Source: Schmidtea polychroa
Lineage: Eukaryota
Length of the DNA stretch: 64,000 nucleotides
Direction of reading: 5' to 3'
NCBI GenBank assembly: GCA_044892525.1
Contig: CM097885.1
Location: 6,078,001 to 6,142,000 of the forward strand
Shown in pieces: positions 1-23,187 of this stretch (position 1 is the stretch's first letter; every line of letters begins with the position of its first letter). Under the pieces are notes generated by a model. It did not search any database, had not been told where the DNA came from, and saw nothing but the letters and a program-made list of their open reading frames with translations. A program made the position numbers and the translations under genes.

Positions 1-2208
1 ATTTTCTTGTCTAAAGTCCTAAATAAATTGAAATAAAATCCAAAATACCACGCAAAATAAATAGATTGCTGGGGGACACCAGGACCCCCCTTTTTGGGTT
101 ACACAAGTAGAATGGAATGGATTTTAAGATTTTTTTTAATATTTTAAACAGTTTCTTGTCTAAAGTCCTAAATAAATTGAAATAAAATCCAAAATACCAC
201 GCAAGATACAGAGATTGCTATGGGACACCAGGACCCCCCTTTTTGGGTTACACAAGTAGAATGGAATGGATTTTAAGATTTTTTTCAAATATTTTAAATA
301 TTTTCTTGTCTAAATTGCTAAATAAATTGAAATAAAATCCAAAATACCACGCAAGATAAATAGATTGCTGGGGGACACCAGGACCCCCTTTTCGGTTACA
401 CAAGTAGAATGAAATGGATTTTAAGATTTTTTTTAGTATTTTAAACATTTTCTTGTCTAAAGTCCTAAATAAATTGAAATAAAATCCAAAATACCACGCA
501 AGATACAGAGATTGCTGGGGGACACCAGGACCCCCTTTTTGGTTACACAAGTAGAATGGAATGAATTTTAAGATTTTTTTTAATATTTTAAACAGTTTCT
601 TGTCTAAAGTCCTAAATAAATTGAAATAAAATCCAAAATACCACGCAAGATACAGAGATTGCTATGGGACACCAGGACCCCCCTTTTTGGGTTACACAAG
701 TAGAATGGAATGGATTTTAAGATTTTTTTCAAATATTTTAAATATTTTCTTGTCTAAATTGCTAAATAAATTGAAATAAAATCCAAAATACCACGCAAGA
801 TAAATAGATTGCTGGGGGACACCAGGACCCCCTTTTCGGTTACACAAGTAGAATGAAATGGATTTTAAGATTTTTTTTAGTATTTTAAACATTTTCTTGT
901 CTAAAGTCCTAAATAAATTGAAATAAAATCCAAAATACCACGCAAGATAAATAGATTGATGGGGGACACCAGGACCCCCCTTTTTGGGTTACACAAGTAG
1001 AATGGAATGGATTTTAAGATTTTTTTTAATATTTTAAACAGTTTCTTGTCTAAAGTCCTAAATAAATTGAAATAAAATCCAAAATACCACGCAAGATACA
1101 GAGATTGCTATGGGACACCAGGACCCCCCTTTTTGGGTTACACAAGTAGAATGGAATGGATTTTAAGATTTTTTTCAAATATTTTAAATATTTTCTTGTC
1201 TAAATTGCTAAATAAATTGAAATAAAATCCAAAATACCACGCAAGATAAATAGATTGCTGGGGGACACCAGGACCCCCTTTTCGGTTACACAAGTAGAAT
1301 GAAATGGATTTTAAGATTTTTTTTAGTATTTTAAACATTTTCTTGTCTAAAGTCCTAAATAAATTGAAATAAAATCCAAAATACCACGCAAGATAAATAG
1401 ATTGATGGGGGACACCAGGACCCCTTTTTGGTTACACAAGTAGAATGGAATGGATTTTAAGATTTTTTTTAATATTTTAAACAGTTTCTTGTCTAAAGTC
1501 CTAAATAAATTGAAATAAAATCCAAAATACCACGCAAGATACAGAGATTGCTATGGGACACCAGGACCCCCCTTTTTGGGTTACACAAGTAGAATGGAAT
1601 GGATTTTAAGATTTTTTTTAGTATTTTAAACATTTTCTTGTCTAAAGTCCTAAATAAATTGAAATAAAATCCAAAATACCACGCAAGATAAATAGATTGC
1701 TGGGGGACACCAGGACCCCCTTTTTGGTTACACAAGTAGAATGGAATGAATTTTAAGATTTTTTTTAATATTTTAAACAGTTTCTTGTCTAAAGTCCTAA
1801 ATAAATTGAAATAAAATCCAAAATACCACGCAAGATACAGAGATTGCTATGGGACACCAGGACCCCCCTTTTTGGGTTACACAAGTAGAATGGAATGGAT
1901 TTTAAGATTTTTTTCAAATATTTTAAATATTTTCTTGTCTAAATTGCTAAATAAATTGAAATGAAATCCAAAATACCACGCAAGATAAATAGATTGCTGG
2001 GGGACACCAGGACCCCCCTTTTTGGTTACACAAGTAGAATGGAATGGATTTTAAGATTTTTTTTAGTATTTTAAACATTTTCTTGTCTAAATTGCTAAAT
2101 AAATTGAAATAAAATCCAAAATACCACGCAAGATAAATAGATTGCTGGGGGACACCAGGACCCCATTTTTGGGTTACACAAGTAGAATGGAATGGATTTT
2201 AAGATTTT
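1..2208. repeat. Tandem satellite, ~149-bp monomer, about 15 copies, running off the left edge
   Basis: The unit TTTCTTGTCTAAA...GAAATAAAATCCAAAATACCACGCAAGATA...GGGACACCAGGACCCCC...GGTTACACAAGTAGAATGGAATGGATTTTAAG recurs about every 149 bp. The ORF-track ORFs at 248/692/1138/1493 are repeat artefacts. Confidence 0.97.
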
Positions 2209-4414
2209 CTTCCGATTTATATACAATTTCTCACTAAACTTTCTTATTAAAATTAAAATACAGAAAAATGAAACCGAAATGTACCGAACAACTTGTAAAA
2301 ATTATCGAGGAGTCAATGAGCATTTTGTTTACAAAAATAAATAAAAATTGAATTTTTTAAAAGATTTTTAAGATTTTTTTTTCATATTTTCAAATCAAAA
2401 CTATCCAAAAACATTATAAAAATAAAAAAAAATAACAACAGCGATAGCGCTCGCCTTCAGATAGAAATTTATCGATTTTTAATAAAGAAAAATGTCAGAC
2501 GCATTCAATATGAAGATAAATGCATAATTATCACGTAATAAATTATTGGAATTGTCTGAGAGTAATTTAATCCAAATGAAATCCGGATTATGAAGACAAT
2601 TCCAAACGCGCGTCAATTGTGTGCAACAGATCAATTTTCACACTCACTCAGATTTTCCTTCAAATATTTACATAAATATTACGATTACGTTATTTTAATT
2701 CAATAATTTCTCATCTTACAAATATTTTTCAGTTTATAAGCTTCATTTACAAAATATACATGACTATTAATAATTCAATTAAAATAGTTAAATTACTTAA
2801 AAAATAAATTATATTACAAAATTTAAAAAAAAATCCGAATAAGAAATTATTATGCTCTTTAAATTATATTTTATTTATAAAATTACAAATACTTACTTGA
2901 GTTAAATCACTGAGAGACCCGGAGTGAGGTTTCCTACTTTCTGAGTCATTTTGACTTTTTAAATAATCACTTGACTCTACCATTACAGATAATCTGTTCA
3001 TGATTAAAATTTATCTAAAATAGAAAAATTAAATTTAAATAGTTTACATGGATTTTTAATCTCAAAAAATTTGAAGTGTGCTGAACTAATCAAATTTAAT
3101 TATTTGCACACTTTAATGATTCAACTAAATTTACTACTGTATGCTAAAATTATAATTATGAAATGAAAAATTACAGTGAACTAATAATTTAAATCCTACA
3201 GTATTAACTTAAAAATAACTCTGTGTGGTAAGTTTTAACACCAAAAAAACATATATCATTGTTAGAAAGAAATTAATGATTAAAATAAAATAATTTTTAG
3301 AATTGTAGTAAAATTATAATACATTTAGAAAGCTAACTATTATTTTCAAAATAAGTATTTATTTAAACACATTTAAAATTACAGATAAAGAATGAAGTAA
3401 TTTAATAATCCTACAAAACAAAGGTTGATAAAGAATTAAAACAATAGTTTATTAAATATAACCTCAAATCAAAGTTAACAAGATTGGTTTATATCTATCT
3501 ATTGTAAAAATATACCCTTTTCATTTTAGAATGTTTTCGTTAAAAAAAATTATCAAAGCAAATTTTTAGTAAAAATTTAGCTCACAAAAAATTTGCCAAA
3601 TTTATTTATTCACAATTAAATATAGAAAGCCTTTAATATTGCAAAAGATAAGATTGTATTTTCGTATAAATTATACTAATTCATAACAATCTTAGAAATT
3701 GCAGTGTGAGTGAACTCTTATGTTTGGAGAAGCACACATTTACAGACTCCTTACAGATATCAGAAGAGAGTAATGGGTTATAATCTTTTGTGTCTTAATT
3801 TAATTTTTAATAAGTTAACGCGTTCGTATAGCAACATTCTTACCTAAATGACGACTTTTGTTTGAAGACCCCATCTCAGTAAAATGTTAGTTCTGTGCTA
3901 CACATATCTTGGGTATTTAAGTAAAAGTTATCTCCGTAACCAAGAATGTAAAATTTAACTTAAGTACGAGCTCATAACGAACTATAAAAGTGTTGGTACT
4001 TAGAAAGGTGTTGTTTAAATCTTCTAGGATTGCTGATAGATTTGCTATTAACTCTTTTCTAAACATCTTCATGACTATTTTACTTTATACCTGCCGTGCA
4101 CACATGGCAACAATAATGTCGGTAATGTACATAGTGGCTGAAAATCATTGAGCAGCTGAATCTCATTACTAGAACTACTCTTCTTATTGCATTTTCACTT
4201 TCGAGTTTGTGACTGCCGAAAGAAAGTCTCTTTATCATTATGGTAAAGAACTCCAGTCGAAAATTCTTAGCAATTAGCAATAGTAGAAACTCTATTTTTT
4301 GACAATTAATATTTATAGTAATTTAAATTTAATAATATGAGATAATAGTATTTATAGTGATTTAAAATTATTATTTTTAAATATGAAGGAGAACGTAGTA
4401 GTATAAATATTGAT

Positions 4415-4417
<3 letters not shown>

Positions 4418-4469
<52 letters not shown>
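4418..4469. repeat. (GA)n microsatellite
   Basis: Directly visible. Confidence 0.95.
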
Positions 4470-4470
<1 letters not shown>

Positions 4471-6476
4471 CAAGGGAACAAAAGGGCAGTTCTGTTATTA
4501 GAATATATTCTGTTTAGCGGAGAAAGTTTATATTACATTCAATTTGTTTGGTAATTTTATATAGCTCGTGTTCTAAATCGATTTTTGTTGTCATATCCTA
4601 ATGTTTCAACATAATCATTTCATTGTTTGCTACATATTGGAACTATTTATTTGTCCTCTTGTTGGAATTTAATCAGAAAGGTTTTCAGTTGCAAACGGTA
4701 AGCAAAGATATTGCTTTCTTTCATAATTACTCGATCTCAGAGTATCAGTAATTTTTGTTCTATTAATTTAAATAAATCATTAAGAGAAAGTTAGGTAAAG
4801 ATTAATAACCGACCTGGTTTCTATCATCGATAAAATCTTTGGGAATCACCCTTTTGTATTTCATTTTACCTATATCGAGTTGTTGAACCAAATTAGGACC
4901 AGCCTTGATACTTTGAAATACTCTGAAGGACTTTTTAAAATAACCGAAAGCTTTTCTTTAGAGACACATAATCATTGTATATCTTTTTACTATTTGTAAA
5001 TTTAATATAATAATAAAATTTTAAACCCTATTTAGTCATTTATTTCGAAATATTTTTATGCTCATATATTTGGAGTGGGATCTGTAGCCTGAGTAAATCT
5101 GGGGTGCTAAGAGCTTTTGCAGAGCTTCGGTTTGTGAAGGGGTGAATTTGGAAATAATAAAGGTCTATTGTTTATAGATTTTCTGCGTCTAGGGAAACAG
5201 CGATTTTTAGGGTAAGTTCGGATATCAATTCGACAGGTAAGCTGTGAAGGAGATGATCTGCATGTTGGGGTAGAACCGAGAATTGAAAGTTTGTTTTAAA
5301 GATTCGAAAATACATAACATAAAAACCGCACCAAGTTGAATTAACATCTATGACCATACACCAAATAATGCAAAGTAAAGTACACGATACATGGGGAACA
5401 AATGAAACATGCATAATAAAATCAAGAACCGTAAGAAGTTGCAATCTCCAACACAGTGAAAAGAAATATCGCATTTGAAAAATCTACCAACTAGAAAATA
5501 AAATAATGATAAATAAAATAATCGGTAATAAATTAATTAATAATATGAAAATGTTCTAAATAAATAAACTTAAAATTGAAACGAAAATATCCAGAAAACT
5601 GATAAAATAATAAAAATTAAAGTAAAATTAGTTGAAAATATGTAAATTATAAAATTTATTAAATCGTTAAAAATAATAAAAATTAAAATAAAATTAGTTA
5701 ACATTATGTAAATTATAAAATTATAGAATTAAATGGTTAAAATTAAGAAAAAATTAAAATAAAATTACCTAAAATTATTTAAATTATAAAATATGCGAAA
5801 TTAAATTGTTGAAATTAATAAAAATTTAATTAATTAATTAATTAAATCAATTAAATTAAAAATAAATAATTACGCACACTCATGTGTGCTTGCAAAAGTA
5901 ATTCAAATTTTACTGCATTCTGATTGGATTTAGTGGCAGAGAATGCATGGATGCACAGTTAAAATCAGTATAAATATTGATTGCAAATTCCGTTGGATCT
6001 GCTCGGAGACCTCCCGACGGGTTCGTCGCTGTTATTTTTATGAATTTTATTGAATTATGAACGGTGATAAAGTAAGTGGGATCGGTTGGAAGTCGATAAG
6101 GCTTATGTTTGGTTAATAGTATTGAATTTACGAGTGGTTATGAAATCAAATAAGTTAAAGTTGGAAATATAGGCAGTAGTGTGGTTATATACCCAACCAA
6201 AACAGCCCCCCAACAAAAAAATGCCTCCAAATCACTTAAGCTATTAGAAAAACAACCTAAAACTTATACTTTTATAGTATTTTAACCCTATATTTTGAAA
6301 ACAACCACCCTTAATGACTCTAACTGTTTTAATCTTTAAAGCCTCAAACTCAAAAGCTTCAAACTAAAAAGAGAATAGAAAAGAAAATGGCATTATGAAA
6401 AAGTTAGAGGGCTATTTGATCTTTATCAGATTATTGATTTTAAATTATATAAATTAAAAAATAAATGAAAAATAGT

Positions 6477-6538
6477 AAAACTGCTCTGAGGGGACAGTGG
6501 TATTTTTTTTTTTTTTTCACTGTCCCCTCAACAGTTTT
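6477..6538. other. Inverted repeat/hairpin with perfect 13-bp stem and T-rich loop
   Basis: TGAGGGGACAGTG (6487-6499) / CACTGTCCCCTCA (6518-6530), extended by AAAACTG/CAGTTTT. Confidence 0.85.
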
Positions 6539-7012
6539 TTTTGATCCGGATCATTTTTTTTATTTATCAACCTCTTTCGTTTATCGAATCTCTTCCAATA
6601 TACAAGCTGGCCAGACTCATACATCAGAATCAATCCGATAATAGCAGCACACCTTATTATTCGCTTCTCGCTCACGAAGTCGATTTCATCGGCGTTTTAA
6701 GTGTGCTGCTCGAAAGTACAAATAAATTCGAAAGCGAATTCGAAAGAGGTCCGAAAACAACTGAGAAATAAATGTGCACATTACCGGGATCGATCCGGGG
6801 GTGTTCGAAAGACAGGTGGCGATAATTACCGGTTCGCCACCATCACCCGTTTCAATATTTTTTTTTCATATTTATGTTTAAAAAATAATTAATTAATAAA
6901 AAAATAAAATAAAATAAAATAAATAAAATAAAATATACAAGTACTTTATAAATATAAGATACCCACACTATTTTCAATATTATTTTCAAATTTTTAATAT
7001 TATTTTATGTTG

Positions 7013-7095
7013 AAAAAAAAACTAACCTCAGATGTGATTTGAACCGCTATCCATTTGAACCACTGTGCCGGTCTAGCCCACTGCGCTATCTAGGA
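7013..7095 (-). ncRNA. tRNA-like Pol III unit 1
   Basis: Minus strand: A box TAGCGCAGTGG (7078-7088), B box GGTTCAAATC (7036-7045), terminal stem CCTAGAT/ATCTGAGG, T-run at 7013-7021. Confidence 0.6.
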
Positions 7096-7341
7096 TTGGA
7101 TTTTTGTCATTTTTAGACTATAAATAATCGATTGAAGTTCTTTAACTCTTTCCTGTAATTGTTTCATTTTCTTCAATCTTATATCAGCAACATCTACAGC
7201 CTTCATATAAAAATGTCGATACTTTTCATTATCTACCATCAACTCTTTGATGTATTCTAATGGTTCTTCTTCTCTTCTTTTCATTCTCTTATGTTTAACT
7301 TCATTCAATTCATTTCTCATTCTTTCTTTTAACTCATCCAT
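7090..7341 (-). CDS. Small charged coiled-coil protein (83 aa), Polinton accessory ORF
   Basis: Intact ORF with AAAAATG start context, E/K/R/L-rich helical pattern, located inside the viral arm. Confidence 0.55.
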   Translation of the reverse strand: MDELKERMRNELNEVKHKRMKRREEEPLEYIKELMVDNEKYRHFYMKAVDVADIRLKKMKQLQERVKELQSIIYSLKMTKIQS

Positions 7342-7503
7342 TTTTATAAATATTTTTTTATTGGATATATTAATTTTTGGTAGCTTAAGTTAAAACGTTT
7401 TTGATCTTAAATTTCAAAGAGTTGCCGTTGACCAATCTCATTAAAAATTTGTACAAGTACTAAATCGAGTATGCTGATCAATATTACGTTAAAAAAAATT
7501 TTG

Positions 7504-7584
7504 AAAAAAAATGACCGAAATGGGATTTGAACCCATTGATATTGGCAATGCAGTCGAGTGCTATTACCACTAAGCTATTAGAGC
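7504..7584 (-). ncRNA. tRNA-like Pol III unit 2 (tRNA-Cys-like 5' half)
   Basis: Minus strand TAGCTTAGTGGTAATAGCACTCGACTGCA..., perfect T-arm AATGGG-TTCAAAT-CCCATT, T-run at 7504-7511. The anticodon stem does not pair. Confidence 0.65.
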
Positions 7585-7745
7585 TATACTCAATATAAAA
7601 TAAGTTGTTAATGTGTGACTATTTATTGATGAAATTGATAATTAATTATTCATTTTCTCGACAACTACCACTCAGATCCATCTGAAAATTTAAATATATA
7701 CTAAAATCAGTACGCTGAATCAGATTCCGTTGAAAAAAAATATCG

Positions 7746-7827
7746 AAAAAAATTGACCAAAATCGAAAATTGAACCCGGTACTCCCGGTGATAAAATTGA
7801 AGCCTATTCCCACTCCGCTATAATGGC
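7746..7827 (-). ncRNA. tRNA-like Pol III unit 3
   Basis: Minus strand A box TAGCGGAGTGG (7810-7820), B-box-like GGGTTCAATT (~7768-7777), T-run at 7746-7752. Downstream flank resembles that of unit 2. Confidence 0.55.
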
Positions 7828-7883
7828 TTACAAAATATATTTAATTAATCCTATTGTGTGTGTGTAAATTTAAATATATAAAA

Positions 7884-9176
7884 ATGAATAATATAAATCT
7901 TAAAATTCAAGAAAAAAATAAATTAAATCTTGATTATAATAAAGAATTTACTCATGAAATCAAGAAAAACGATGTACTTAAAATCTCCCCAACTTCAGGA
8001 TCTATTGCAAACTTAAATCGTAGGGGTGATATAGTTTTTCAATCTCTTCAAACATCAAACCCTATAGATATTTGTAATGCCAAATTATATTATAAAATCG
8101 AATTAGAAATTGAAGCAAACAAAGATATAACCCTAGAAAATAATTTCTTTCCAAATTTATTCTCCAACATGAGATTAAAACTAGGATCATCAGAAATTGA
8201 AACTGTTTTGCATCCGGGAGTATATTCTACAATGTTAAATTTTATTTTGACTGGTTGTGATTATAAAAACGAATATGGTGAATTAACAGGTTGGATTCCT
8301 GATGTTAATAAAGGGGATTTAGATAAAGATGGTTTAGATGTAAACAATGGTTACCATAAAAGAGCTGAACTTTATAAATCTAAAAAATTTGAAGGTTATT
8401 TTGAATTAAAACACTTGTTTGGATTCCTTCAAAACTATAATCGTATACTTCATAATGTTTTTATAGAATTCATCTGTAATAGAGTAGAAGGTGATAAAAG
8501 ATTGTTCTATGGAGCTGTAGATACAAAAGCTAAATTAAAATTATCAACACTTGAATTACATATACCTGAATGGACATTAAACCCACATTCTGAGATTAAA
8601 CTCCTTGAAAGATTAAATTCCAACAAGTCTATAAATGTAAATTATTTAAATAGAATCTGTAGTGAATTTAGTATGACAGAGGGTTCAACATATTCTATAA
8701 AGGTAGCAAATTTAGCATACCGACCAAGATATATCTTGATTGGATTCAAAGAAGTAGATTCATCTTTCCAAAAAAATAACAATCTATTTATTCAAAAGAT
8801 TGGAGTTGATAATTTAAAAACAATCCAAATTCAATTAAATAGTTCTTATTATCCAATAAATAGAATGGAATTTAATATTGAAAATAATGAAAACATATTC
8901 CCATATCTAAATTATATTGAAACATGTTATGATTTCAAAGTTGAACCGCAATTAAGTTTAGAAGATTTCAAAAATTTATATTCTATATTTTGTATAAATG
9001 TTTCAGACCAAGATGATCGCCTAGCCATAAATAATGTTGATGTTACACTTCATGTAACAAAGGATTCTAATTTTAAAGCTAAAGTATATACATTAATATT
9101 AGAAGAAAAGAAAATAGAAATGAAATTATATGGTGGAAAGATTTCAATAATCGAAAATGTTAGGGGAGATTCTTGA
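7884..9176 (+). CDS. Double jelly-roll major capsid protein (Polinton/adintovirus hexon-like)
   Basis: ~430 aa, beta-rich; motifs NNFFPNLFS...IE, LKHLFGF, RPRYILIGF, I.LNSSYYP, LYSIFCINVS typical of Polinton MCPs; adjacent to ATPase, protease and penton. Likely ATG at 7884. Confidence 0.8.
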   Translation: MNNINLKIQEKNKLNLDYNKEFTHEIKKNDVLKISPTSGSIANLNRRGDIVFQSLQTSNPIDICNAKLYYKIELEIEANKDITLENNFFPNLFSNMRLKLGSSEIETVLHPGVYSTMLNFILTGCDYKNEYGELTGWIPDVNKGDLDKDGLDVNNGYHKRAELYKSKKFEGYFELKHLFGFLQNYNRILHNVFIEFICNRVEGDKRLFYGAVDTKAKLKLSTLELHIPEWTLNPHSEIKLLERLNSNKSINVNYLNRICSEFSMTEGSTYSIKVANLAYRPRYILIGFKEVDSSFQKNNNLFIQKIGVDNLKTIQIQLNSSYYPINRMEFNIENNENIFPYLNYIETCYDFKVEPQLSLEDFKNLYSIFCINVSDQDDRLAINNVDVTLHVTKDSNFKAKVYTLILEEKKIEMKLYGGKISIIENVRGDS

Positions 9177-9205
9177 TATAATCCCTGATATTTTAACATT
9201 TTAAA

Positions 9206-10612
9206 ATGTCTCTCTATTGGAGATGTGAAAGTTGTAATTGTCAAGTTACAAGACATCATAAAGCAAGTCATTTAAAAACTAAAAAACATACAGGAGGTGA
9301 TCTAATTCCACGAGCTGGAGGCGATTTGCAATCTTCAAAAACAACATCTTCAATATTAAAACCTTTTACTACAGAAAAATATCCAGGTGAAAGACATTTA
9401 TTTAAACACAACTATACTGGACCAGGAACACGTCTAGATATTAGATTAGATGAAAATAATAATCCCAAACAAGGAGAAGAACCAATAAATAGAATTGATC
9501 AAGCAGCTTTAAAACATGACATTGCATACAATTCAACAAATCTTAGAGATAGACATGTTGCAGATGTGAATTTAATACATGATTTAAATAGTATCCAAAA
9601 TCCATCAACCCAAGAAAAGATTCAAAGAGCTCTAGTTAAATTAGCAATGAAAGGTAAGATTTTCATTGGCTTAGGACACAGTCCGATCACCATGGGTGCA
9701 AGACTTCCTAGGAAAGCAAAAGATGTTGCTTATAAAAAGATTATCGAACAAGCAGAGATTGAAAGATCCCTCGAGAGTACAGCCAAGACTAGTTTACAAA
9801 CCCCAACAGAATCAGAAATAAAATATGCAAAGGAATTACACCATGAATTTAGAAAAAATAAAAAATATTTAAAAGTTCAAGTACATGAAAAAGATCAAAG
9901 ATGGTCTGCAGATTTAGTCTTTATGCCAACCAAATCATCAGACCCTGAAAAATATAAAATAATTTTAACTGTAATAGATTTATATACAAGATTTGCTTTT
10001 GCAAGATGTTTAGAAAATAAAACAGGATATTCTATTACAGAAGCATTTGAAAATATATTTGAAGAAAATCAAAGAATCCCAAAATATTTATGGTGTGATA
10101 AAGGAACAGAATTTTATAACAAAGTTTTTACAAAGTTTTTAAATGAAAATGATATTAAATTATATTCAACAGAAAACGAAGGAAAAGCAGTCGTAGTTGA
10201 AAGATTAAATAGAACATTAAAAAATAAAATGTGGAAATATTTTACTGCTATTGGAAAACAAAAATGGAACAATGAGTTGTTACAAAAGATTGTAAATGAA
10301 TATAATAATGATGTACATAGTTCTATAAAATCAACACCTTTAAATGCTTCCATGAATCCTGAAACCATTAAAGTGGTAAATATTGAAAATGATGTTATTG
10401 AAAAACCAAAGTTTAAAATTGGTGACCGAGTAAGAATATTTAAATATAAAAATAAATTTGAAAAAGGATTCACAGCAAAATGGACAAATGAAATTTTTAT
10501 TATAAATAAAATACATTATGCAACTCCAATAACATTTAGCATCATTGATTTAAATAATGAAAAAATATTAGGTAGATTTTATAATAATGAGTTACAGAAA
10601 ACAGATTTTTAA
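9206..10612 (+). CDS. Fusion protein: C2H2-like Zn finger + parvovirus-type PLA2 + rve (DDE) integrase + C-terminal beta domain
   Basis: CESC-x-H-x5-H; YTGPGT...PINRIDQAALKHDIAY (PLA2 Ca loop and HD); WSADL, IDLYTRF, WCDKGTEF, VERLNRTLK (DDE); KFKIGDRVRI...FEKG...WT.EIF (Polinton integrase C-terminus). Confidence 0.9.
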   Translation: MSLYWRCESCNCQVTRHHKASHLKTKKHTGGDLIPRAGGDLQSSKTTSSILKPFTTEKYPGERHLFKHNYTGPGTRLDIRLDENNNPKQGEEPINRIDQAALKHDIAYNSTNLRDRHVADVNLIHDLNSIQNPSTQEKIQRALVKLAMKGKIFIGLGHSPITMGARLPRKAKDVAYKKIIEQAEIERSLESTAKTSLQTPTESEIKYAKELHHEFRKNKKYLKVQVHEKDQRWSADLVFMPTKSSDPEKYKIILTVIDLYTRFAFARCLENKTGYSITEAFENIFEENQRIPKYLWCDKGTEFYNKVFTKFLNENDIKLYSTENEGKAVVVERLNRTLKNKMWKYFTAIGKQKWNNELLQKIVNEYNNDVHSSIKSTPLNASMNPETIKVVNIENDVIEKPKFKIGDRVRIFKYKNKFEKGFTAKWTNEIFIINKIHYATPITFSIIDLNNEKILGRFYNNELQKTDF

Positions 10613-10623
10613 GTCGACAAGCC

Positions 10624-11415
10624 CTAAAATAAACTTTTCCATATTTCAGCTTCTTCTCTATCCAAATAAATATAATTATATTTTTCTCTCCAATGATTAT
10701 CAACAAACATATCAAACATATTCTTATCAGGTTCAACATTTGAAAATAAATCATTATAAATCATATTCTTATCACGGCGATCTAATTTAAAAAATATAAA
10801 ACAATTAGAATTATTTCTTATAGAGTTTTTATCTAAAGCATAATAAGTTTGAGATATATAAATAACATTACAATTATTATGTCGACCTCGTGTAAAGTAA
10901 CTCTTTTGAATCTCTTGATTTTTCATATTAACAACATCATCAAATATAACTGGATTCTTTTTATCTTTAGGAAGTAAATCACAATGTAAAACATCTTCAG
11001 GTTTATTAGAGAATAAAACTTGAATTGCCTCCTGCCCTTCTTCACAAATATAATCATTTTTATTACTAATATCTGATTCTAAAATCTTTTCCTTATACCA
11101 ATCAACCATATCACAAGGTTGAAAAACTTCTTCAGGACACCTATGTTGATTTTTAAAAATATCAATTATTGCTTTTTTAGTTAATTTATTTTCAAACCCA
11201 CATTTCAAAAGTTGTAATTCTGGTTGATTTATGGTTGTAGAATAAAAGATTAAATTATTATAATCTAAAAAATCATCTTCAAGTAACATTCTCAAAACAA
11301 GTACATTCTTTCCACATCCAGAAGAACCAACAATTAATAATCTAAAATTATCAGGAAATACTTTATTATTAAATTTACTCTTATGTCTATTTAAAATTGG
11401 TTTCCAAATATCCAT
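10624..11415 (-). CDS. A32/FtsK-like DNA packaging ATPase
   Basis: Walker A GSSGCGK, Walker B VIFDD, RGRHNNCNVIYISQ, IRNN. Likely start at Met19 of the track ORF (11415). Confidence 0.92.
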   Translation of the reverse strand: MDIWKPILNRHKSKFNNKVFPDNFRLLIVGSSGCGKNVLVLRMLLEDDFLDYNNLIFYSTTINQPELQLLKCGFENKLTKKAIIDIFKNQHRCPEEVFQPCDMVDWYKEKILESDISNKNDYICEEGQEAIQVLFSNKPEDVLHCDLLPKDKKNPVIFDDVVNMKNQEIQKSYFTRGRHNNCNVIYISQTYYALDKNSIRNNSNCFIFFKLDRRDKNMIYNDLFSNVEPDKNMFDMFVDNHWREKYNYIYLDREEAEIWKSLF

Positions 11416-11430
11416 TTTGTTTATTATAAA

Positions 11431-12039
11431 ATGACCTCGAAGAGTTCCTCTACTGAAGAATCTTTGCAAGAATTAATAAATTCAAATAAAAATAAATCAG
11501 TAGTAATTGATGGTAAAAAATATTTTATTGGAAAACATGTAAAAGAACAAGTTAGAGCGAAGCTCCACGAAGCTAAAGAAGGTGGCATTCTTCCATTAGC
11601 TGCTTTAATACCTGCAATGATTGCTGGTTTATCAGGTGCTGCTGGAATAGCTGGAGGAATTGCAACTACAGTTCAAAAAGCTAAAGAATCTCAAAAGACA
11701 GACCTAGAAAAAGAAAAACTACAAACTGAAATCGATTCAATGAAGAAGGTAGGGCAAGCTAAAGGGGGAGTGTCCGTTGGAAAGGGTCTCTATCTTAATC
11801 CATATGAGGGGAGTCGGCAAAAGTCTCAGGGGACTCTGTCCAAGGGAAAGGGTCTCTATCTTGATCCTTATAAAGGTAGAGGTTTAAATGATTTTTTAAA
11901 AAATCAAATTTCTACATCTGAATCTTTATCTTCAAAAGATAAAGAAGATTTAAAAAAAATATGTAAATCTTTAAAGAATGGATGCCTTTGTAAAACTAAA
12001 AATGGTATAGGATTATACTTGAAGCCATTCGAACTATGA
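11431..12039 (+). CDS. pX-like/membrane-active virion core protein
   Basis: KEGG|ILPLAALIPAMIAGLSGAAGIAGGIA resembles the adenovirus pX C-terminal hydrophobic segment; repeated GxGLYLxP(Y/F) motifs. Confidence 0.65.
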   Translation: MTSKSSSTEESLQELINSNKNKSVVIDGKKYFIGKHVKEQVRAKLHEAKEGGILPLAALIPAMIAGLSGAAGIAGGIATTVQKAKESQKTDLEKEKLQTEIDSMKKVGQAKGGVSVGKGLYLNPYEGSRQKSQGTLSKGKGLYLDPYKGRGLNDFLKNQISTSESLSSKDKEDLKKICKSLKNGCLCKTKNGIGLYLKPFEL

Positions 12040-12061
12040 TACCATTTTTGATACCATTAAA

Positions 12062-12943
12062 ATGGTATATGAAGAAAGATTAGCACTTTTAAAAAAATTA
12101 CAATCAGAACAAGATAAATATAATAAAAAAGATACAACTCAACATGCTGAATCTATAATATTAAATGAGGTAATAACACAACAACAGGGGCCAACAATTA
12201 AAGCTATAAAAGAGTTGGAAGATTTCAATGAGCAAGCAAAATTTAAAGAGTTAGAAGATAAAAAACAAAAAATAAAAGAACTAGAGTGGCAGGATAAAGA
12301 AAATGAATCCAGTGAAAACCATCCTGAAAGAAATCAAAGAAAACGCAGAAGAATTTCTAATGTGGAAGAAGAAGAAATGTTTTTAAAAACAAAACCTCTT
12401 AAAGTTGATCCTAAAATTAGAGATGATTTACCTCCTTCAATTAGACCCACATTTAATACTAATACTGAAGGATATCAAATAATAACAATTAATAAACAAA
12501 ACTTTACTTTATATTCAAATTTAGAAAATAAATCACGTATTCATTCACAAAATGTTTATAATAATGAATATTTAGACTTTGAATTTACAGATGATTTTTA
12601 TAGATTACTTTGTGGATATTCTACAGATGATGTTGAAGAAATTAAAAAATATTTAAATTTAATAAAATTAATAAGAGCTAGTTCTAAAGCAAAATATATT
12701 CAAGATTTAAAGAATTATTTAAATAAAAATGAAAAGGGTTATGTTGTTACAGAGGGAGAGGGATTAATTAGTGAAGGTGGTAAACCAAACCCCATCAATC
12801 TTTTTATTGAATTAAGAAAACTATTAGCTGCAAGGAAAGCAGGACATAATAATTTAGATTCTGTTATTTTAAAGATTTCTAAAGATTTGTTAAAACAAGG
12901 AATAATTTCAAAAGATAAATTTAATAAGTATACGAAGTTATAA
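12062..12943 (+). CDS. Conserved uncharacterised Polinton protein
   Basis: C-terminus GEGL...NPINLFIELRKLLAARKAGHNN...LLKQGII resembles a recurrent Polinton motif (P.EL..RL.LL.A...AGN....L...GII); basic NLS-like RKRRR. Confidence 0.65.
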   Translation: MVYEERLALLKKLQSEQDKYNKKDTTQHAESIILNEVITQQQGPTIKAIKELEDFNEQAKFKELEDKKQKIKELEWQDKENESSENHPERNQRKRRRISNVEEEEMFLKTKPLKVDPKIRDDLPPSIRPTFNTNTEGYQIITINKQNFTLYSNLENKSRIHSQNVYNNEYLDFEFTDDFYRLLCGYSTDDVEEIKKYLNLIKLIRASSKAKYIQDLKNYLNKNEKGYVVTEGEGLISEGGKPNPINLFIELRKLLAARKAGHNNLDSVILKISKDLLKQGIISKDKFNKYTKL

Positions 12944-12965
12944 ATACGAAATTTTAAAATACAAA

Positions 12966-13430
12966 ATGACTCCTTCAATATTAGATTTTTTAAAAACATT
13001 TGGAATAAATGCAAAAACAAATTTTGATTTAAAAGATTATGCAAATTATTTAAATTTAAAAATTAAAATATTAATGAATGATGAATTATCAAGTCTGGAG
13101 AGTCCCTTGAATATAATAATCAATTATCAAAATTCAAATGAAAAAGGATCTCATTGGGTTTGTATATATAAGAAATCTATCTACTTTGATTCTTTTGGGA
13201 TTAAACCTACTAAAGAAGTTGAAGATTATCTCTTGAGGGGTTCTCCGATTGATTCCCCAAATGGTTATACTTTTAACTCTTTACAAGTTCAACCTTTGAA
13301 TACTAAAATATGTGGTATTTTAAGTTTATATGTTTTGTATAGATTGAATAAGGGAGAGGGAAAGGGGCATACGCAGGATTTTGAATCTATAATTCAAGAA
13401 ATTTATAATGATCTAGAATCTCTACTATAA
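12966..13430 (+). CDS. Adenain-like cysteine (maturation) protease
   Basis: GSHWV (His), YFDSFG (Asp), Q-x6-CG (oxyanion Gln and Cys). Confidence 0.9.
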   Translation: MTPSILDFLKTFGINAKTNFDLKDYANYLNLKIKILMNDELSSLESPLNIIINYQNSNEKGSHWVCIYKKSIYFDSFGIKPTKEVEDYLLRGSPIDSPNGYTFNSLQVQPLNTKICGILSLYVLYRLNKGEGKGHTQDFESIIQEIYNDLESLL

Positions 13431-13478
13431 GGATTTTTACTATAAGGATTTTTACTATATGAATTTACTACTAAAGAA

Positions 13479-14243
13479 ATGGAGCTTCACAACCCTCCGG
13501 AAGATAATTTAAAAAAAATGGTAAACATAATGTCAGATAAATATTCAAGAACTTTATCTATAAATTCAAAAGAATCAGACTTTACTATAAACTTTCAAGA
13601 TTCAATTAAATTAGATCAAAATTTAAATTATGAATTGGGGCTATTATGGTTTTGTGCTTATAATACTATTTTTAATATAACTAAAGATAATAATAAATTT
13701 ACTATTCAAACTCGTGATGGGTATAAACCAGAAATTATAACAATAGAACCTGGGGCATATGAGATAAAAGATTTAAATGATATACTTTCTAAAAAAACAA
13801 ATGAAGGTATTAAAATTAAAATGGATATACCAACTTCAAAATGTGTAATGACTTTGAAGAATATAAAAATTAGTTTTTTAGATAATTGTTTCTTTCACAC
13901 AGTTTTAGGATTTAAACCTATGGATATAACAATAAAAGAAGATAAAATAATAACATCAGAACATATTATAAAAATAATAAATACAAACACAATAAATATT
14001 CATTGCGATTGTATAACAGGTTCTTCTAATAATGGTAAACAAACAAATGTTTTATATTCCTTTCCCTCAAACACAGTTCCTATGGGATATAAAATAAAGG
14101 AAAGAATGAATCCTCCAAATTATTTACCTTTATGTAGAAAATATATAATGGATATTAATTTTAAAATTCTTAATCAAGAAGGAGAATTGATTGATTTTAA
14201 TGGAGAAGAGATAGGTCAATTATTCAGGTATTGCATAGAATAA
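13479..14243 (+). CDS. Minor capsid protein (penton-like), C-terminus probably clipped
   Basis: YELGL, YNTIFNI...NNKF, I.PGAYEI.DLN, INIHCDCI.GS..NG...VLYSF, P.YLP, I.NQ.G..IDFNGE.I. The last residues (GQLFRYCIE) look non-homologous. Confidence 0.8.
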   Translation: MELHNPPEDNLKKMVNIMSDKYSRTLSINSKESDFTINFQDSIKLDQNLNYELGLLWFCAYNTIFNITKDNNKFTIQTRDGYKPEIITIEPGAYEIKDLNDILSKKTNEGIKIKMDIPTSKCVMTLKNIKISFLDNCFFHTVLGFKPMDITIKEDKIITSEHIIKIINTNTINIHCDCITGSSNNGKQTNVLYSFPSNTVPMGYKIKERMNPPNYLPLCRKYIMDINFKILNQEGELIDFNGEEIGQLFRYCIE

Positions 14244-14499
14244 TAGAATGATATTTTTAATCAGGAAATAAGGGCGAATCCCTGGTAAAAAATTTAGAAA
14301 AAGACAATAGAAAATATCCTTAATTGATGATAACAGGTAATCTAACAACAGAATAGATATTGAATAATGACGTAAGACATTCTATCGGCAGTTCAGAACC
14401 CGAAAATGAAAATAACTTGAAAAAGAAGTTTTAGCAATAGAGCTCACCTGCTAATGAATTTTAAACCATTGTATACAGCACCAACATGGCGATCACCAT

Positions 14500-15364
14500 G
14501 AATATACAGATGGTCTAAACTTTATAAAAATTCAATCCCCTCCAAAAATTAACACTAATAAAACACCAACTGTGCAAACTCCGACACATTTTGACCATTC
14601 AAGTTTATTCTCTGAAAAGAACTCATCTACTTTTACAAAAATATCAATACTTCTTGTTGCAGCTTAAAGCTCTCGACAAAAATGTAAATCTTCATGAACT
14701 TCGTTGTTATACTGATATCTTACAAAAACCATTAATTGTGGGTAATTTGTTATATCAGTCGATTTATCAAGTTGTATTGCCAAGAAATTACTCTGTCTAA
14801 TACCAGATATCAATTGAGCTTTAATATTATCTCCCGTGCTATCAATTCTTCTTTTCATGGTATCGTTTGAGATAGGAATATATATCAAATGATTAGGAAT
14901 ATTTTCGTTGTGTATAATTTCACAAATTTTAATTGCCGCTGGTAATATAAGATCTTCTCCAATGGCATAAGGTTTTTTGGTCTTTGCAATTAATAGGCAA
15001 CTTCATATGATGCTTTTAGCAGGTCGTCTGTTAGTTTGGTGTATTTTGAAAAAGAACTTGTTTATCCCTTTTGAGCGACTACCTTTCTTTGAAAAAAATC
15101 TAGCGGCTTATTTTTATATTCAGGATGGAAAGTAGCTAAATGACGAATTAATTTTCCTGGCATCATGCTGTCGTTTAAAAATTGGGTGAAACAAATTACA
15201 CACATAGGTCTTTCTTGATTATTGATTGTAGACGAAGTAAATTCATATTTCAAATAATCAGAATCATATTTCCGATTTTTTATATGACGTGCATTATTAT
15301 TATCTGGTTGGACTTTTCTTTTATTGCTAGTAGTTAATGTTGTAAATGTCGATGACATCATCAA
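14500..15364 (-). mobile_element. Degenerate hAT (Buster/ZBED5-like) transposase fragment
   Basis: RKYDSDYLKY...PMCVIC...MMPGKLIRHL...HP..K.KPLDFF; ISNDTMKRRI...AIQLDKSTDI...QLMVFVRY; broken by stops and frameshifts. Confidence 0.85.
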
Positions 15365-17329
15365 TACTTGGAGTCAGTTAGTATCCCGTGACCACTATGT
15401 ATGACGACACATTAACCACGGTCAGTATGTTGAGTCATCAGTACGTGGGGCAGTTAACTAATGATGTGTGTATTACCTCTCCTGTTTTCCAGTTTCAATT
15501 TCGATAACATTTCACTTTATTCCACTTCCTCAGATTTACACATTTTTCGTTTTCGTTATTTTTCTTTTTTTGTCATATTTTTCTTTGCTATTACTTCTCG
15601 TCTTGACCACCATTCTCTTTCGTTCAATTTATGTTTTCTTTTTACTCGAAACTTTTCAATTTACCATAATTTAATAATTTACTTTTACAACCTCAACACA
15701 ATCTACAATTTACAAATGCCGAATATCACAATATAAGTCCTATTCTGACTATTCAATAAGTATCACTGTAACCACTTTGGTTCTGCACATTCTGCAACAA
15801 TAACCACCTCTTTGTTTACATAACTTGATTCTTTTATTTTCCTTTCCGCTAAATCTATCTTCTGACTTTAATTTTACATTTAATTCTACTGTTTAATTAT
15901 TCATTCTTAACTAAGGCAAAATGCACAAAAAATTATATAATTTTTCAATAATATTAAATTGTTATTAATTTCTTTGATTATCAGCTAATAATTCTTTCAA
16001 GCAAATGTGATTTTTAATTTTAGTTCCTTTTTCTGTGCTTCCAATTACCCTCAAAATTAAAATTTCGTGTACCTGAAATCCTGTATTGAAAATTTCCCAG
16101 AATCCCGAATTTTTTCATTTTTTACTTCTGGAACCAGTAATATATTAAGTCTAGGAATTCAAAAGCTCTAGAAACAACTCAACTCATCACTTTTCAAAAT
16201 AAAATCCTTTGTTGAGCAAATCAAAAACAGTGTCGAAATTAACCAGAACTTAATTGAAAAATATATTTTAAGAATAGTTTATTCTATTTCATAAATAGAT
16301 AACAGACTATAAAATTAAATAAAAATTTTTAATACAAAAATTAGTTCTAAACTTTTATAGTTTTACTAATAAAAATACAAACTTGTTTAAATGAATTAGA
16401 ATTATTTATAATGATTTGATCCAAATTAAAATGTAAATTTTTTCTATTTTTTCCAAATTTTTATGAAAAGAAAATTATGATCAATCGGGTGATATTAATT
16501 TTAATTTTTAAATTTGAAATTATATTGCAATGTTTATCGAAAAGATGTTAGATTTATTATTTTTGTTCGAATTTAGATGTTAGCCATTGATTAGTAGTTC
16601 TTTTACCATACAATTCTGATTTATGTAACTCGTCAATCAATGGGATCAATAAGTACCAAGAATTTAACATAAATCAACATATGAATTTTGAAACTTTATC
16701 TAACATTAGTGATGTGCTGAGGAATATTAATAATAATATCAATGCAACCGATATGTCTACTCACCTACCTTGGAAGCAATTCGAAAATGAAATGACTCAG
16801 TATTATTTTTGTCGTGTACTTGTCAAACCAATGGGTCGGCAGTTGATATTTCACACTGAACAAGGTGAATATAATTTTTGGAATATTAGGGCGAGAATAA
16901 ATCGGTTGCAACCTCCTGTTAAATGCTCTGATAGATTACTGTTGCAATTTAGACACAATCATAATTTTATCTCAGATTTGGACAGTCATTCAGCGCGAGT
17001 AAAATATTGAATTGTATATTATATTTATACATTGATTGTTCATAATACATTATTATGATTATACTATAATTAATTTATTACTGGCATTAGTTAGTTGAGG
17101 AGTGATTTATTGTAATTTTGTGCGCAACTGACTTGTTACTAATGATAAATTAATGACATCCTCCCCTCCTCATTATTCACTGGTTACCTAAATAAATCCA
17201 ATCCCTACAATGCCTTTGTACATTTTGACGCCTAAATACATGTAAAATATTCCAATAATTAATCAATAAAAATTATTTAATTCTTGAAATATTTGATTCA
17301 TGAAAATGATAAGTGAAATCATTAAATCC

Positions 17330-17921
17330 TTTTCATTATTATTTTTTTTAATATTTATTTATTCTTATTTATTATTTTAATTATTATTTTTATTTATTAT
17401 TAGTTATTGTTATTTATTTAATATTTCTTTATTTATTGTTATTCATTATTTTTAGTTATTATTATTTATTATTATTTATTATTTTAATTATTATTATTAT
17501 TATTATTATTATTAATCTTTAATATTTATTTATTTATTCTTATTTATTATCATTTATCATTTATTATTAATATTTATTTTTATTTATTATTTTGTTTATT
17601 AACATTTATTATATATTTTTATTATTAATTATTATTATTATTATTTATTATTATTATTATTATTAATCTTTAATATTTATTTATTATTCTTATTTATTAT
17701 CATTTATTATTTATTATTAATATTATTAATATTTATTTTTATTTATTATTTTATTTATTAATATTTATTTATATATTTTTATTATTAATTTTTATTAATA
17801 TTATTATTATTATTTATTATTACTATTATTATTATTATTATTTAATATTTATTTATTTATTGTTATTTATTATTTTATTTATTAACATTTATTATAGATT
17901 TTTATTATTAATTTTTATTAA

Positions 17922-19235: not shown

Positions 19236-19480
19236 TGAGTAGAACCCCATACCAAATTGTCCTATCATTGAAATATCAGCTCCAGCATTAAGTGTTTTCA
19301 CAATGCCTTAGTTCCAGATCTTGGAATTGTTCTCAAATTGTTAATCAAATCTGCCTTTGTCATTCCAATTCCAGTGTCGATAATAGTTAAAGTACCAGGA
19401 TCTTTATCGGGAATCATTTGAATCATTAAATCCTTTGCAATGTCGAGAACTGATGGATCTGTTAAACTTTTGTATCTAAT
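19236..19480 (-). pseudogene. HSP90: Hsp90 N-terminal domain fragment, frameshifted
   Basis: [13 protein letters not shown]...[28 protein letters not shown], then a 1-bp frameshift, then AGADISMIGQFGMGFYS. Confidence 0.9.
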
Positions 19481-19483
19481 GTT

Positions 19484-19579
19484 GCCAGCAAGACACACAG
19501 CTTTCATTGCATATTCACCTTGACATAAACTACCATCCTGAGAAAAAGTAGTTGTTCGAACATCATATCTTCGACCCAA
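19484..19579 (-). pseudogene. PSMA4: Proteasome alpha-3 (PSMA4/Pre9) N-terminal fragment fused in frame to the Hsp90 fragment
   Basis: [31 protein letters not shown] vs consensus [28 protein letters not shown].HAG; start codon is TTG. Confidence 0.8.
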
Positions 19580-20241: not shown

Positions 20242-23187
20242 CAGTGAAACCTCTCTAATAGGACCACCCTTGGTTCCGGACCAAAAGTGGTCTTTACTAG
20301 AGGTGGTCCTATTAGAGAGGGTTTTATTTTTATAAAGAAAACTAGACTTACCGTAATTTCCGGTCTATAAGTCGCGGTTTTTTTCAGACGCTGACGGTGC
20401 TGCGACTTAAATAAAGGAGCGACTTATATAATAAGTTTAATCACGTTCCGTTTCTATAATAAATCTAAATGTAATCAACAATTTGTGACTGTTCTGTCTT
20501 TGATGAACTGATAATTGATGCCGTGGTTATCAAAGGCCCTTTTTGTAATATGATACAATCTTAAACCATCACCATCATTATAATATATCTAAGACGCCAT
20601 TTAGCCTATTTCGTAAACCAAGCTTACAGGATGTCTAGGCTAGGCGAACTGCCGCCATGTTGGCGTGTCAGTTTAACTGCCGATCTGATTGGTCATTTCG
20701 GACCCTGGATCCGAAATTTGAGAGCCCATCAAACAAATGTCAGCTTTAATCACCAGATGGCAGTGTATATAAGACCGCTGTAATAGATTTCCTGTCAAAA
20801 CAATTTAATTTTTCAAATTAAAATATACCGAAAGTTTAGTGCAAAATGAGTTCCAACAAAACAAGGAAATCGTACACTGCCGAGTTTAAGCTGCAAACTA
20901 TCAAATTTGCTGAGGAAAACGGCAATCGAGCGACTGAGCGGCGATTTAATATTAGTGAAAAACTAGTTCGAGACTGGCGAAAATCAAAAGATGCGCTGTT
21001 GCTGACAAAAGAACCAAGCGGGCGAATCGAGGTCATAAAGCAAGATGGCCAGGACTGGAAAATCAGCTTTCTAAGTTTATTGTGGAGCAGCGAGCTCAAA
21101 GTCGCGGAATATCAACCGTCCAAGTTCGTCTTAAGGCCAAAGAAATAGCGAATGATCTGGGAATCGATGAATTCATTGGTGGACCATCTTGGTGTTTTCG
21201 TTTCATGAAGCGCCAGCAGCTCTGCATCAGATCAAGAACGACCATGTGTCAACAACTGCCTGCTGACTACATCGAAAAAATCCGGAATTTTCGTGAATTC
21301 ATTTATTCAAAAGTCGCGAAATATGAAATCATTCCAGATCATATTATCAACATGGATGAAGTTCCACTCACCTTCGATATTCCTCTGGGCCGAACTCTCA
21401 ATAACAAAGGTGAGAAAACGATCAACATAAGAACAACTGGCCACGAGAAATCGCACTTTACGGTCGTGCTGTCATGCTGTGGTGATGGAAGGAAGCTTCC
21501 TCCAATGATAATCGTCAAAAGGAAAACCATGCCAAAAGAGGCATTTCCCAACAACGTGATCATTCAAACCAACGCAAAGGGATGGATGGATGAAGAAATG
21601 ATGAACATATGGTTGGAGAGATGTTTCAAAAAGAGGCCTGACGGATTCTTCAAAACTAAAAAGGCATTGCTCGTAATGGACAGTATGCGAGCTCACATCA
21701 CAGAGAACATAGAAACGAAAGTTAAAGGCAACAACTCGATTCCTGTCATTATACCAGGTGGTCTGACGAAGGTGCTATAGCCTCTGGATATTTCTGTCAA
21801 CCGAAGTTTCAAGGTCCATCTGCGTCGTTTGTGGGAAAGATGGATGACCAGCGGTGAACATAGCTTTACGGCAACAGGTCGCATACGTCATGCCACCTTT
21901 GCGGAAGTGGCCAAATGGGTGGTCGAGGCATGGGATAAATTGAATCCGGCGATTATCACCAGTGGATTCAAGAAAGCGGAAATCTTACTGGCAGACAATG
22001 ATGACAACGACGACTCTGATAGCGATGATGATGATGACAACTATGAACTGACTGTACCAGATGAAATTGCTCAATTATTTGAAAGCGATACTGAAGATGA
22101 AGGCTTTAATGGATTTAATGGATTTACAGACTCTGATTTTTATTGATAAATTTAACTTCATTAATCGACATTTATAACTTAGGCATTTCGTTTTCGCTTC
22201 TCATTGAACTTGGTACACCATTCCTTGAAAATTGTACTGGTCATCCAAGCCTTTCTATTTGCATGCCATTCAACACCCATTTTAGACATATCGATGTTTT
22301 TGAAGCACCTTGGCCTTAAAGATTTATTTATTATGACCGGTGGCTCTTTTTCTCCCAACATATTAACACAAAGCATGATTGTTATTCTTTGTTTGGATTT
22401 ATTACTTCCATATGTTTTTCTCCAGCACGACCCAAAGATTTCCCTGGCAACATTTTATAGAATAAAGCAGTCTCATCTATGTTGTAGATATCTTTCTTTT
22501 CATAGTTTGTAATAACATCTGGGATTTTCGAAAACCAATCTGATAGCACAGATGGTTCTACGGAAGCAGATTCACCTGATAAAACCCTCAAAGTAATATT
22601 GTTTCTCTTGAGGAATTTCTCCAACCAGCCATTACTAGCTTTAAACACATTGTTGTTTAGACTAATAGCTATCTTCTTAGCTGATGCTTTCAACAATTCT
22701 CCGTTAATAGGAAAGCCTCGCAGCACTTTGTTTTCATACCACTCTAGAACATACTCATTGATAAGTTTAAACTGCTGATTTGTTAGTCGTTTTAGTTTTT
22801 TATTTGCATTATTGTTCCAAAGCTCCTTTATTTCTTCTTTGTTAACAATGATATTGTGGACTTGCGTTTTACTACAAGAAAATCGTCTTGCAATAGGTCT
22901 TTGTCCTTCTCCTCGCTCAGAAGATTTAATAACATCCATCTTCTCGCTCAATGTAAGCTCCTTTCTCGTTTTTTTTACTCCCATTTTAATTTTAAAAAAA
23001 TATTTAAACAAAAAATATTTAAACTAAAAATATTTTTTACGAAAAGTGGTCTTAACGAGAGGGGTGGTCCTATTATGGAGGGTTATTTGTCCCAGTAAAC
23101 TACTGTGTAAATTTGGTTCCGAAGAAATAGAGGTCTTAACTAGAGTTGGTCTCTTTAGGGAGGTGGTCTTAAGTAGAGGTTTTACTG
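20242..23187 (-). mobile_element. Tigger/pogo-family DNA transposon with TIRs and TA TSD, internally deleted
   Basis: TA|CAGTGAAACCTCTCTAATAGGACCACC ... GGTGGTCTTAAGTAGAGGTTTTACTG|TA. Minus-strand transposase 22179-23011 (HTH psq, CENP-B HTH FKASNGWLEKF, YNIDETALFY) is frameshifted and truncated. Confidence 0.88.
20351..22178 (+). mobile_element. Nested pogo (POGK-like, Brinker-DBD) element with decayed transposase
   Basis: Left TIR TA|CCGTAATTTCCGGTCTATAAGTCGC; transposase 20846-22146 (RKSYTAEFKL, NMDEVP, LVMDS, [Q->stop]PLDISVN) with a frameshift near 21010 and a stop at 21778; right TIR not found. Confidence 0.88.

Follow-up and report, generated by a model that had tools for sequence, protein, structure and literature searches.

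Type-2 Pol III units in the arm of a Polinton-like element of Schmidtea polychroa: host-derived cargo and a candidate structured RNA

A Polinton/adintovirus-like element of ~15 kb, present in thousands of copies, carries in its left arm four minus-strand units with a type-2 Pol III layout: an A box, a B box ~43-44 nt apart from it and an oligo-T terminator. Two of them (units 2 and 3) were captured as one block from the host rDNA spacer. Another (U4), overlooked in an earlier note on this DNA, heads a stretch that folds far more strongly on the strand of its boxes than on the opposite one. The reading we favour, with belief and doubt evenly divided, is that the arm is a modular cargo zone in which the RNA of U4 would be under selection for a decoy role while units 1-3 would act mainly at the DNA level. 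Features of the element in the window (the whole 64-kb stretch of DNA that was analysed) are as follows:

6175..7114: left TIR of the element, starting with AGTAGT and containing U4 and unit 1
6456..6856, minus strand: U4, candidate Pol III RNA gene of ~300-390 nt (A box 6839-6829, B box 6796-6787; internal T4 at 6757; A-runs at 6561 and 6542)
~6638-6584, minus strand: 25-bp G-U-rich imperfect hairpin of U4
~6534-6481, minus strand: terminal hairpin of U4, followed by T4/T5/T6 runs in 6480-6456
7013..7095, minus strand: unit 1 (A box 7088-7078, degenerate A-like box 7070-7060, B boxes 7061-7054 and 7045-7036, T9)
7090..7341, minus strand: 83-aa ORF, no Pfam match, missing from some subfamilies
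7377..7871: captured rDNA intergenic-spacer block of 495 bp with units 2 and 3
7504..7584, minus strand: unit 2, tRNA-Cys-like pseudogene (A box 7577-7567, B box 7533-7524, T8)
7746..7827, minus strand: unit 3, degenerate paralogue of unit 2 (A box 7820-7810, imperfect B box 7776-7767, T7)
7884..9176, plus strand: major capsid protein, double jelly-roll (Pfam PF21738, E 6e-26)
9206..10612, plus strand: PLA2-like domain fused to rve integrase (PF08398, PF00665)
10624..11415, minus strand: packaging ATPase, A32-type (PF04665 Pox_A32)
11431..14212, plus strand: four more ORFs, none above a Pfam cut-off, presumably including protease-like and penton-like ones

The element, its four units and their distribution

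Copies of the element start at 6175 with AGTAGT. Both ends were found in 8 of 10 mapped copies (length 13.4-16.9 kb), and all 8 copies with both ends are flanked by 6-bp target-site duplications. The TIR (6175-7114) and the right end of another copy are 96% identical. A long TIR (~940 bp) starting with AG and a 6-bp target-site duplication are characteristic of Polintons, as is the gene set identified with Pfam (rve integrase, packaging ATPase, double-jelly-roll capsid and a PLA2-like gene). The PLA2-like gene assigns the virion module of the element to the Alpha class, of which such genes are described as the mark (PMC8502044). There are ~2,700-3,300 candidate copies among the matches listed for the 781-Mb genome. 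The window's copy ends abruptly at ~14212 and has neither a polymerase gene nor a right end; other copies have long ORFs at their right end, with motifs presumed to be those of a protein-primed DNA polymerase B.

Several observations concern the surroundings and the variants of the element. The window opens with a tandem satellite (1-2210, ~148-bp period). Its stretches 14213-15400, 20846-22146, 22382-22984 and 19298-19507 hold what we take to be hAT/Buster-type and pogo/Tigger-type transposase-like fragments and a piece of Hsp90, and the fragment at 14213-15400 begins where the Polinton copy breaks off. Several subfamilies have a ~200-bp terminal module with its own inverted AGTAGT...ACTACT repeats, which differs among subfamilies (L069:3510-3715, L071:3105-3335, L082, L086, L088, L089, L091, L104). 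One copy (L031:9677-L032:4096) is split by an inverted segment that carries another polymerase-like gene, only ~70% identical to that of the main family. In L068 and L074 a subfamily with 91% capsid DNA identity has a different arm upstream of the capsid gene, other ORFs and zero Pol III units.

The three minus-strand units that the earlier note described are present at 7013-7095, 7504-7584 and 7746-7827. Their A boxes begin at 7088, 7577 and 7820, the B boxes lie 32-33 nt beyond the 11-nt A box, and T-runs of 9, 8 and 7 nt are found 12-14 nt past the B box. Pol III boxes are kept by the units, as judged for all of them against the general A-/B-box consensus; the B box of unit 3 ends in T where the consensus has C. 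A strict A/B/T pattern, composed after the units had been seen, has exactly 3 matches in the 64-kb window; all 3 lie within the element (6175-14210), for which 300 dinucleotide shuffles average 0.003 matches and never exceed 1. A relaxed box scan of the window yields exactly one further unit with its own A and B box, U4, which the description of only three units had missed; its A-to-B distance of 43 nt is that of unit 1. The units had been placed between the left end and the capsid gene. They do lie in the arm of the element, but unit 1 is inside the ~940-bp TIR and therefore occurs at both element ends.

None of the units has the pairing of a canonical tRNA: acceptor pairs number 4/7, 5/7, 5/7 and 3/7, and T-stem pairs 2/5, 5/5, 4/5 and 4/5, for unit 1, unit 2, unit 3 and U4, respectively. 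Low scores had been expected from tRNA models. ARAGORN indeed finds 0 tRNAs, but unit 2, alone among the four, passes the Rfam tRNA model (RF00005; 34.2 bits, cut-off 29). Unit 2 has the perfect T-arm ascribed to it and a tRNA-Cys-like 5′ half (46 of 74 columns match the host tRNA-Cys gene, best in the 5′ half), and its 243-bp period and common flank with unit 3 are also found (74% identity over 94 nt).

Recurrence of the units in other copies was part of the original proposal. They are fixed parts of the element, but close subfamilies lack some or all of them. Among 48 capsid-anchored loci, picked for divergence and so biased to rare subfamilies, 26 carry unit 1 and U4 only, 9 all four units, 10 none and 3 a partial set; the 10 loci without any unit mean that no unit is essential for every subfamily. 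Unit 1 and U4 are gained or lost jointly as a ~690-bp cassette with a direct repeat at both junctions; its empty site is seen in L082, whose capsid is 97-98% identical to that of the carriers L069 and L072. A unit commonly stands head-to-head with the first inward gene. In the window, unit 3 faces the capsid gene across a gap of 63 nt (44-63 nt to the capsid ATG in two subfamilies) and the 83-aa ORF (7341-7090) sits between units 2 and 1, while at right ends a unit adjoins the polymerase gene. Where a subfamily has the 83-aa ORF but no units 2 and 3, ~300 nt separate the ATG from the closest unit.

Searches with two diverged capsid queries for a second, more distant family returned only subfamilies at 90-99% among the 48 loci examined, and three scans of viral contigs found no relatives. 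A metagenome scan retrieved 13 loci with 25-52% capsid identity, in none of which a terminus was identified; in these terminus-less loci no units were found by the strict scan or ARAGORN (13/13 loci), by the relaxed scan (5/13 scanned) or by Rfam (9/13 scanned). No homologue was found outside the genome studied in these viral contigs and metagenome loci. In the intergenic gap of one distant relative (L051:5436-5515) a hairpin scores 48.6 bits against a miRNA model (cut-off 84) and is probably an inverted repeat.

The host rDNA spacer as source of units 2 and 3

The block 7377-7871 is 93-94% identical to rDNA spacer in L238 and L241, while the rest of 6175-14210 has no match to the rDNA spacer. 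The rDNA loci were reached via a diverged copy of unit 2; the 12 loci fetched comprise 4 Polinton arms, 6 rDNA loci, a diverged host copy (L230) and L234, which was left out of testing. Rfam identifies LSU rRNA in 4/4 and SSU rRNA in 3/4 of the rDNA loci scanned, and two further loci align with them over kilobases. The units sit antisense in the intergenic spacer between the LSU and SSU rRNA genes, where unit 2 is found in one to three tandem copies. A case of tRNA-like units in a crustacean rDNA spacer has reportedly been described; our literature search found no account of tRNA-like units in an rDNA spacer.

Host flanks extend beyond both junctions of the block and are common to diverged host copies (L230, 90.6%; satellite L216, 86%), and no Polinton sequence adjoins the block in the rDNA loci. 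An empty site is found in L064 and L065, with AAAATT common to both junctions, and in a second subfamily (L231, L232, L235, L237) the block lies further out with different breakpoints. The flanks, the bare rDNA copies, the empty site and the second position point from host to element as the direction of transfer. The empty site together with the other breakpoints in the second subfamily makes the block a recent host cargo, and units 2 and 3 are probably optional passengers. This lowers the claim for the three units as first reported, a single virus-evolved family of ~75-80-nt VA-like RNAs, since two of them are host cargo.

The host spacer and its derivatives have further peculiarities. Upstream of unit 3 the spacer contains an additional tRNA-like A/B-box unit, U5 (L238:4878 region, L233, L236, L239, L240, L241), seen in none of the Polinton loci examined; antisense Pol III-type units thus form a small cluster there. 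In a ~1,245-bp tandem satellite (G000:C1:145835-168521, L211-L229; C1:31320-32778), rDNA-spacer flanks (86%) and degenerate short subrepeats accompany a decayed unit 2, whose core is more diverged (18/74) than the flanks (~11%). Two rDNA loci (L239:4850-5340, L233:111-1733) hold sequence presumed, from endonuclease and reverse-transcriptase motifs, to be a non-LTR retrotransposon.

Compared with the rDNA copy, unit 2 has 1 difference in 73 nt and unit 3 has 0 in 75 nt. Since capture the cores differ at 1/148 positions and the flanks at 10/285, differences too few for selection to be demonstrable. The small contrast fits neutral hitch-hiking, according to which all units would be captured host Pol III pseudogenes without function for the element, as do the host origin of units 2 and 3 and the existence of subfamilies without units. 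We regard this explanation as distinctly unlikely, given that the unit-1 boxes are near invariant amid highly polymorphic columns and that U4 variants mostly preserve pairing in the long hairpin (see below). Moreover, the rDNA spacer, the 7SL gene and, for one U4 haplotype, the 40 best matches yielded no host source of unit 1 or U4.

Unit 1 and U4 in the TIR

Unit 1 is present in 1-2 tandem copies per element end, and its B box in one to three tandem copies among element copies. In 112 distinct copies, 1 of 29 box columns is polymorphic at ≥5%, compared with 27 of 64 other unit-1 columns; the Fisher p of 7e-5 for this difference is overstated because columns are linked. The sole box polymorphism is TAGC/TGGC. 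The fold of unit 1 is no better than that of shuffles (z +0.96; T-stem 2/5) which, with conservation confined to the boxes, suggests a DNA element with the behaviour of a promoter. Its alignment with units 2 and 3 beats those of all 500 shuffles, mostly via the boxes, and an older capture from the same family is plausible. By eye, a hairpin of 5 bp can be seen before the T-run at the unit-1 3′ end in L070, L076, L093 and L105, its tetraloop being C(UACG)G or C(UGCG)G.

These data bear on the possibility that each of units 1-3 yields a stable ~75-90-nt tRNA-like RNA acting as a VA/TMER-like decoy or as a miRNA precursor. Complete A and B boxes and T7-T9 terminators are in agreement with it, and so are the preserved T-arm and the fold (z -2.1) of unit 2, whose core is also better kept than its flanks in host copy L230 (1/74 differences versus 28/343). 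But units 1 and 3 lack a fold above shuffles (z +0.50 for unit 3), which speaks against the VA-like nature proposed for them, the transcribed spacers of unit 1 are highly polymorphic, no hairpin separates B box and terminator in the window's copy, and units 2 and 3 are rDNA-spacer sequence that already has many host copies. We consider it the least probable of the readings weighed here.

U4 differs in its folding. The stretch 6856-6470 has a fold z of -8.54 and, for the U4 region, the minus strand reaches z -5.2 versus -2.2 for the plus strand; 14 of 100 confident pairs are G-U. In the long hairpin all five polymorphic pairs (5/5) alternate between Watson-Crick and G-U. Over U4 as a whole the variant classes among 112 copies, mostly >90% identical, are 10 consistent, 2 compensatory and 12 breaking. 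Most breaks fall next to an A-rich junction or in the stem that encloses the B box, and the B box retains its GATCGA core even where this stem is broken. Polymorphic columns amount to 26/296 in U4 versus 42/156 in spacer. At right ends U4 has no upstream ORF on its own strand and is therefore not simply a 3′ UTR. Its internal T4 at 6757 could stop transcription after ~100 nt. Against Rfam, U4 gives 16 weak matches, none near the cut-off.

Three origins were considered, of which 7SL and SINE are rejected. Derivation of U4 from 7SL fails because 88 of 500 shuffles scored as well against the host 7SL gene. Descent of U4 from a host array is not supported by the 40 best matches of one haplotype, which are dispersed, a search that diverged host copies would escape. 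The third is a dispersed tRNA-derived SINE. Such SINEs consist of an A/B-box head, a body and an A-rich tail, as U4 does, but no solo copies with their own target-site duplications were seen in the 90 loci sampled, of which 90/90 are in arm context. This sample, made of 30 position-ordered matches each for unit 1, unit 2 and U4 at partly overlapping loci, is confined to the initial 4-13 Mb of C1 and does not include the rDNA copies. Host Pol III genes themselves form long arrays of tandem repeats: tRNA-Cys with a period of 281 bp and 1,005 pattern matches genome-wide, 7SL with a period of 593 bp, and another tRNA with one of 424 bp (sites at G000:C1:269.25 Mb, C2:31.93 Mb and C4:76.66 Mb).

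An expression lead came from three runs, RNA by guess only, and a nearly empty one; the depth of their contigs cannot rank parts of the element. In the guessed RNA runs, summed contig depth is highest over 6528-6848 (3,900-8,500 in X1 and 1,300-17,700 in X3, with the AT-rich 6856-6941 skipped). Depth elsewhere, which likewise is not a ranking of parts, is 175-1,140 for unit 1, 1-28 for units 2 and 3 and 0-780 for the capsid gene. An X2 contig spans 6534-6732; X1 and X3 contigs link 7377 to 7873, as expected of the allele that lacks units 2 and 3; and in four X3 contigs loose T-runs precede 6554, where there is an internal A8 run. At 6622 and 6635 both X1 and X2 have T; this haplotype is found in 9/112 copies and in 0/29 of the position-ordered sample, which could come from a strain difference. 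The coverage of U4 is a hint of transcription, to be taken as a lead only because contigs say nothing of level, strand or ends.

A DNA-only role of all four units was also considered, as TFIIIC/Pol III-bound heterochromatin barriers or as single-strand replication hairpins, any RNA being a by-product. tRNA genes and TFIIIC act as insulators, and unit 1 resembles them by the conservation of its boxes only; the multiplication of its B box, the usual head-to-head arrangement of a unit with the first inward gene, the TIR position and the weak U4 covariation point the same way. The thin covariation also counts against U4 as an RNA, and G-T pairs could equally serve a single-stranded DNA structure. 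Conversely, the U4 fold is far stronger on the box strand and rich in G-U pairs, a barrier needs no folded body of 300 nt, and in subfamilies that have the 83-aa ORF and lack units 2 and 3 the distance between ATG and nearest unit is as much as ~300 nt. We hold this possibility to be unlikely.

The preferred reading, a modular cargo zone with a selected U4 RNA, would operate as follows. The arm would gather type-2 Pol III cassettes, all facing outward. Units 2 and 3, as the sequences show, were copied recently from the host rDNA spacer via short microhomologies, at two positions in different subfamilies, and unit 1 with U4 is a second cassette that became part of the TIR. Host TFIIIC would bind the boxes and load TFIIIB and Pol III. 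U4 would then give a ~300-390-nt structured RNA, the product under selection, with a promoter-bearing 5′ domain, a multi-stem core including the 25-bp imperfect duplex, A-rich linkers, a terminal hairpin and an oligo-U end. Most likely this RNA would engage host defence proteins of the dsRNA/small-RNA pathways, as a VA-RNA-like decoy or as their substrate. Units 1-3 would serve mainly as DNA: as additional TFIIIC sites they would hold the end open and strengthen U4 or the divergent capsid/polymerase promoters, and their short U-tailed transcripts would be by-products.

Relation to known Pol III RNAs and cargo

Adenovirus VA RNAs are ~160 nt long, GC-rich and abundant, and block PKR and Dicer (PMC2777419). 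This analogy had been drawn for units 1-3, which differ from VA RNAs by their ~80-nt length and, in units 1 and 3, by the missing fold. The comparison fits U4 better, the only unit with a VA-like stable and highly paired fold (z -8.5). U4 shares with VA RNA the internal A/B boxes, the oligo-T end, a strong fold with a long duplex and the occurrence in a double-jelly-roll virus lineage that is presumably protein-primed. It differs in being a candidate only, of ~300-390 nt, AT-richer, located in a TIR and without Rfam match; the VA model in Rfam gives no match at E up to 10 for units 1-3 or U4. Judged from these predicted features, U4 is the better VA-RNA analogue than units 1-3.

TMERs of MHV68 combine a folded tRNA-like part and miRNA hairpins in one transcript and have triplicated A boxes (PMC8223928). 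The units resemble them as clustered tRNA-like type-2 promoters near a genome end, with tandem A-like and B boxes in unit 1; unlike TMERs, units 1-3 end straight past the B box. U4 has a 25-bp hairpin, but a cloverleaf is absent (acceptor 3/7).

In Polinton-like viruses and virophages, 558 Rfam tRNA matches in 8300 genomes were read as decoding tRNAs (PMC12220804), and MELD viruses have tRNA genes in Polinton-type genomes (PMC8502044). The element likewise holds tRNA-derived sequence within a Polinton-type genome, and differs in that ARAGORN finds 0 tRNAs and that the donor of two units is the rDNA spacer. Nematode Mavericks carry host protein-coding cargo next to the left TIR (bioRxiv 10.1101/2022.07.12.499685); both systems have host cargo by the TIR, which here consists of non-coding Pol III cassettes. 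In the literature found, neither Pol III cassettes nor a non-coding counter-defence RNA are described for Polintons, the ncRNA tables S11-S12 of PMC12220804 being a place that may bear on the former.

In a planarian, Polintons are reported to be piRNA-silenced (PMC8532177). U4, in both TIRs, may be a VA-RNA analogue, an abundant Pol III RNA of ~300-390 nt that titrates Dicer/Argonaute/PIWI proteins or dsRNA sensors, boosted by tRNA-derived TFIIIC cassettes repeatedly harvested from rDNA spacers, and may so have aided expansion to thousands of copies. We view this wider scenario as possible though doubtful. For U4 a start, promoter boxes, a fold and an end can be predicted, which makes it a concrete candidate, carried by thousands of copies at both termini. 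The rDNA-spacer capture, with empty and filled sites side by side, illustrates how such elements acquire Pol III promoters, and it also reveals that the rDNA spacer of the host has tRNA-like units. Polintons are placed near the ancestry of adenoviruses. If the scenario were true, viral Pol III counter-defence RNAs would go back to the Polinton relatives of adenoviruses.
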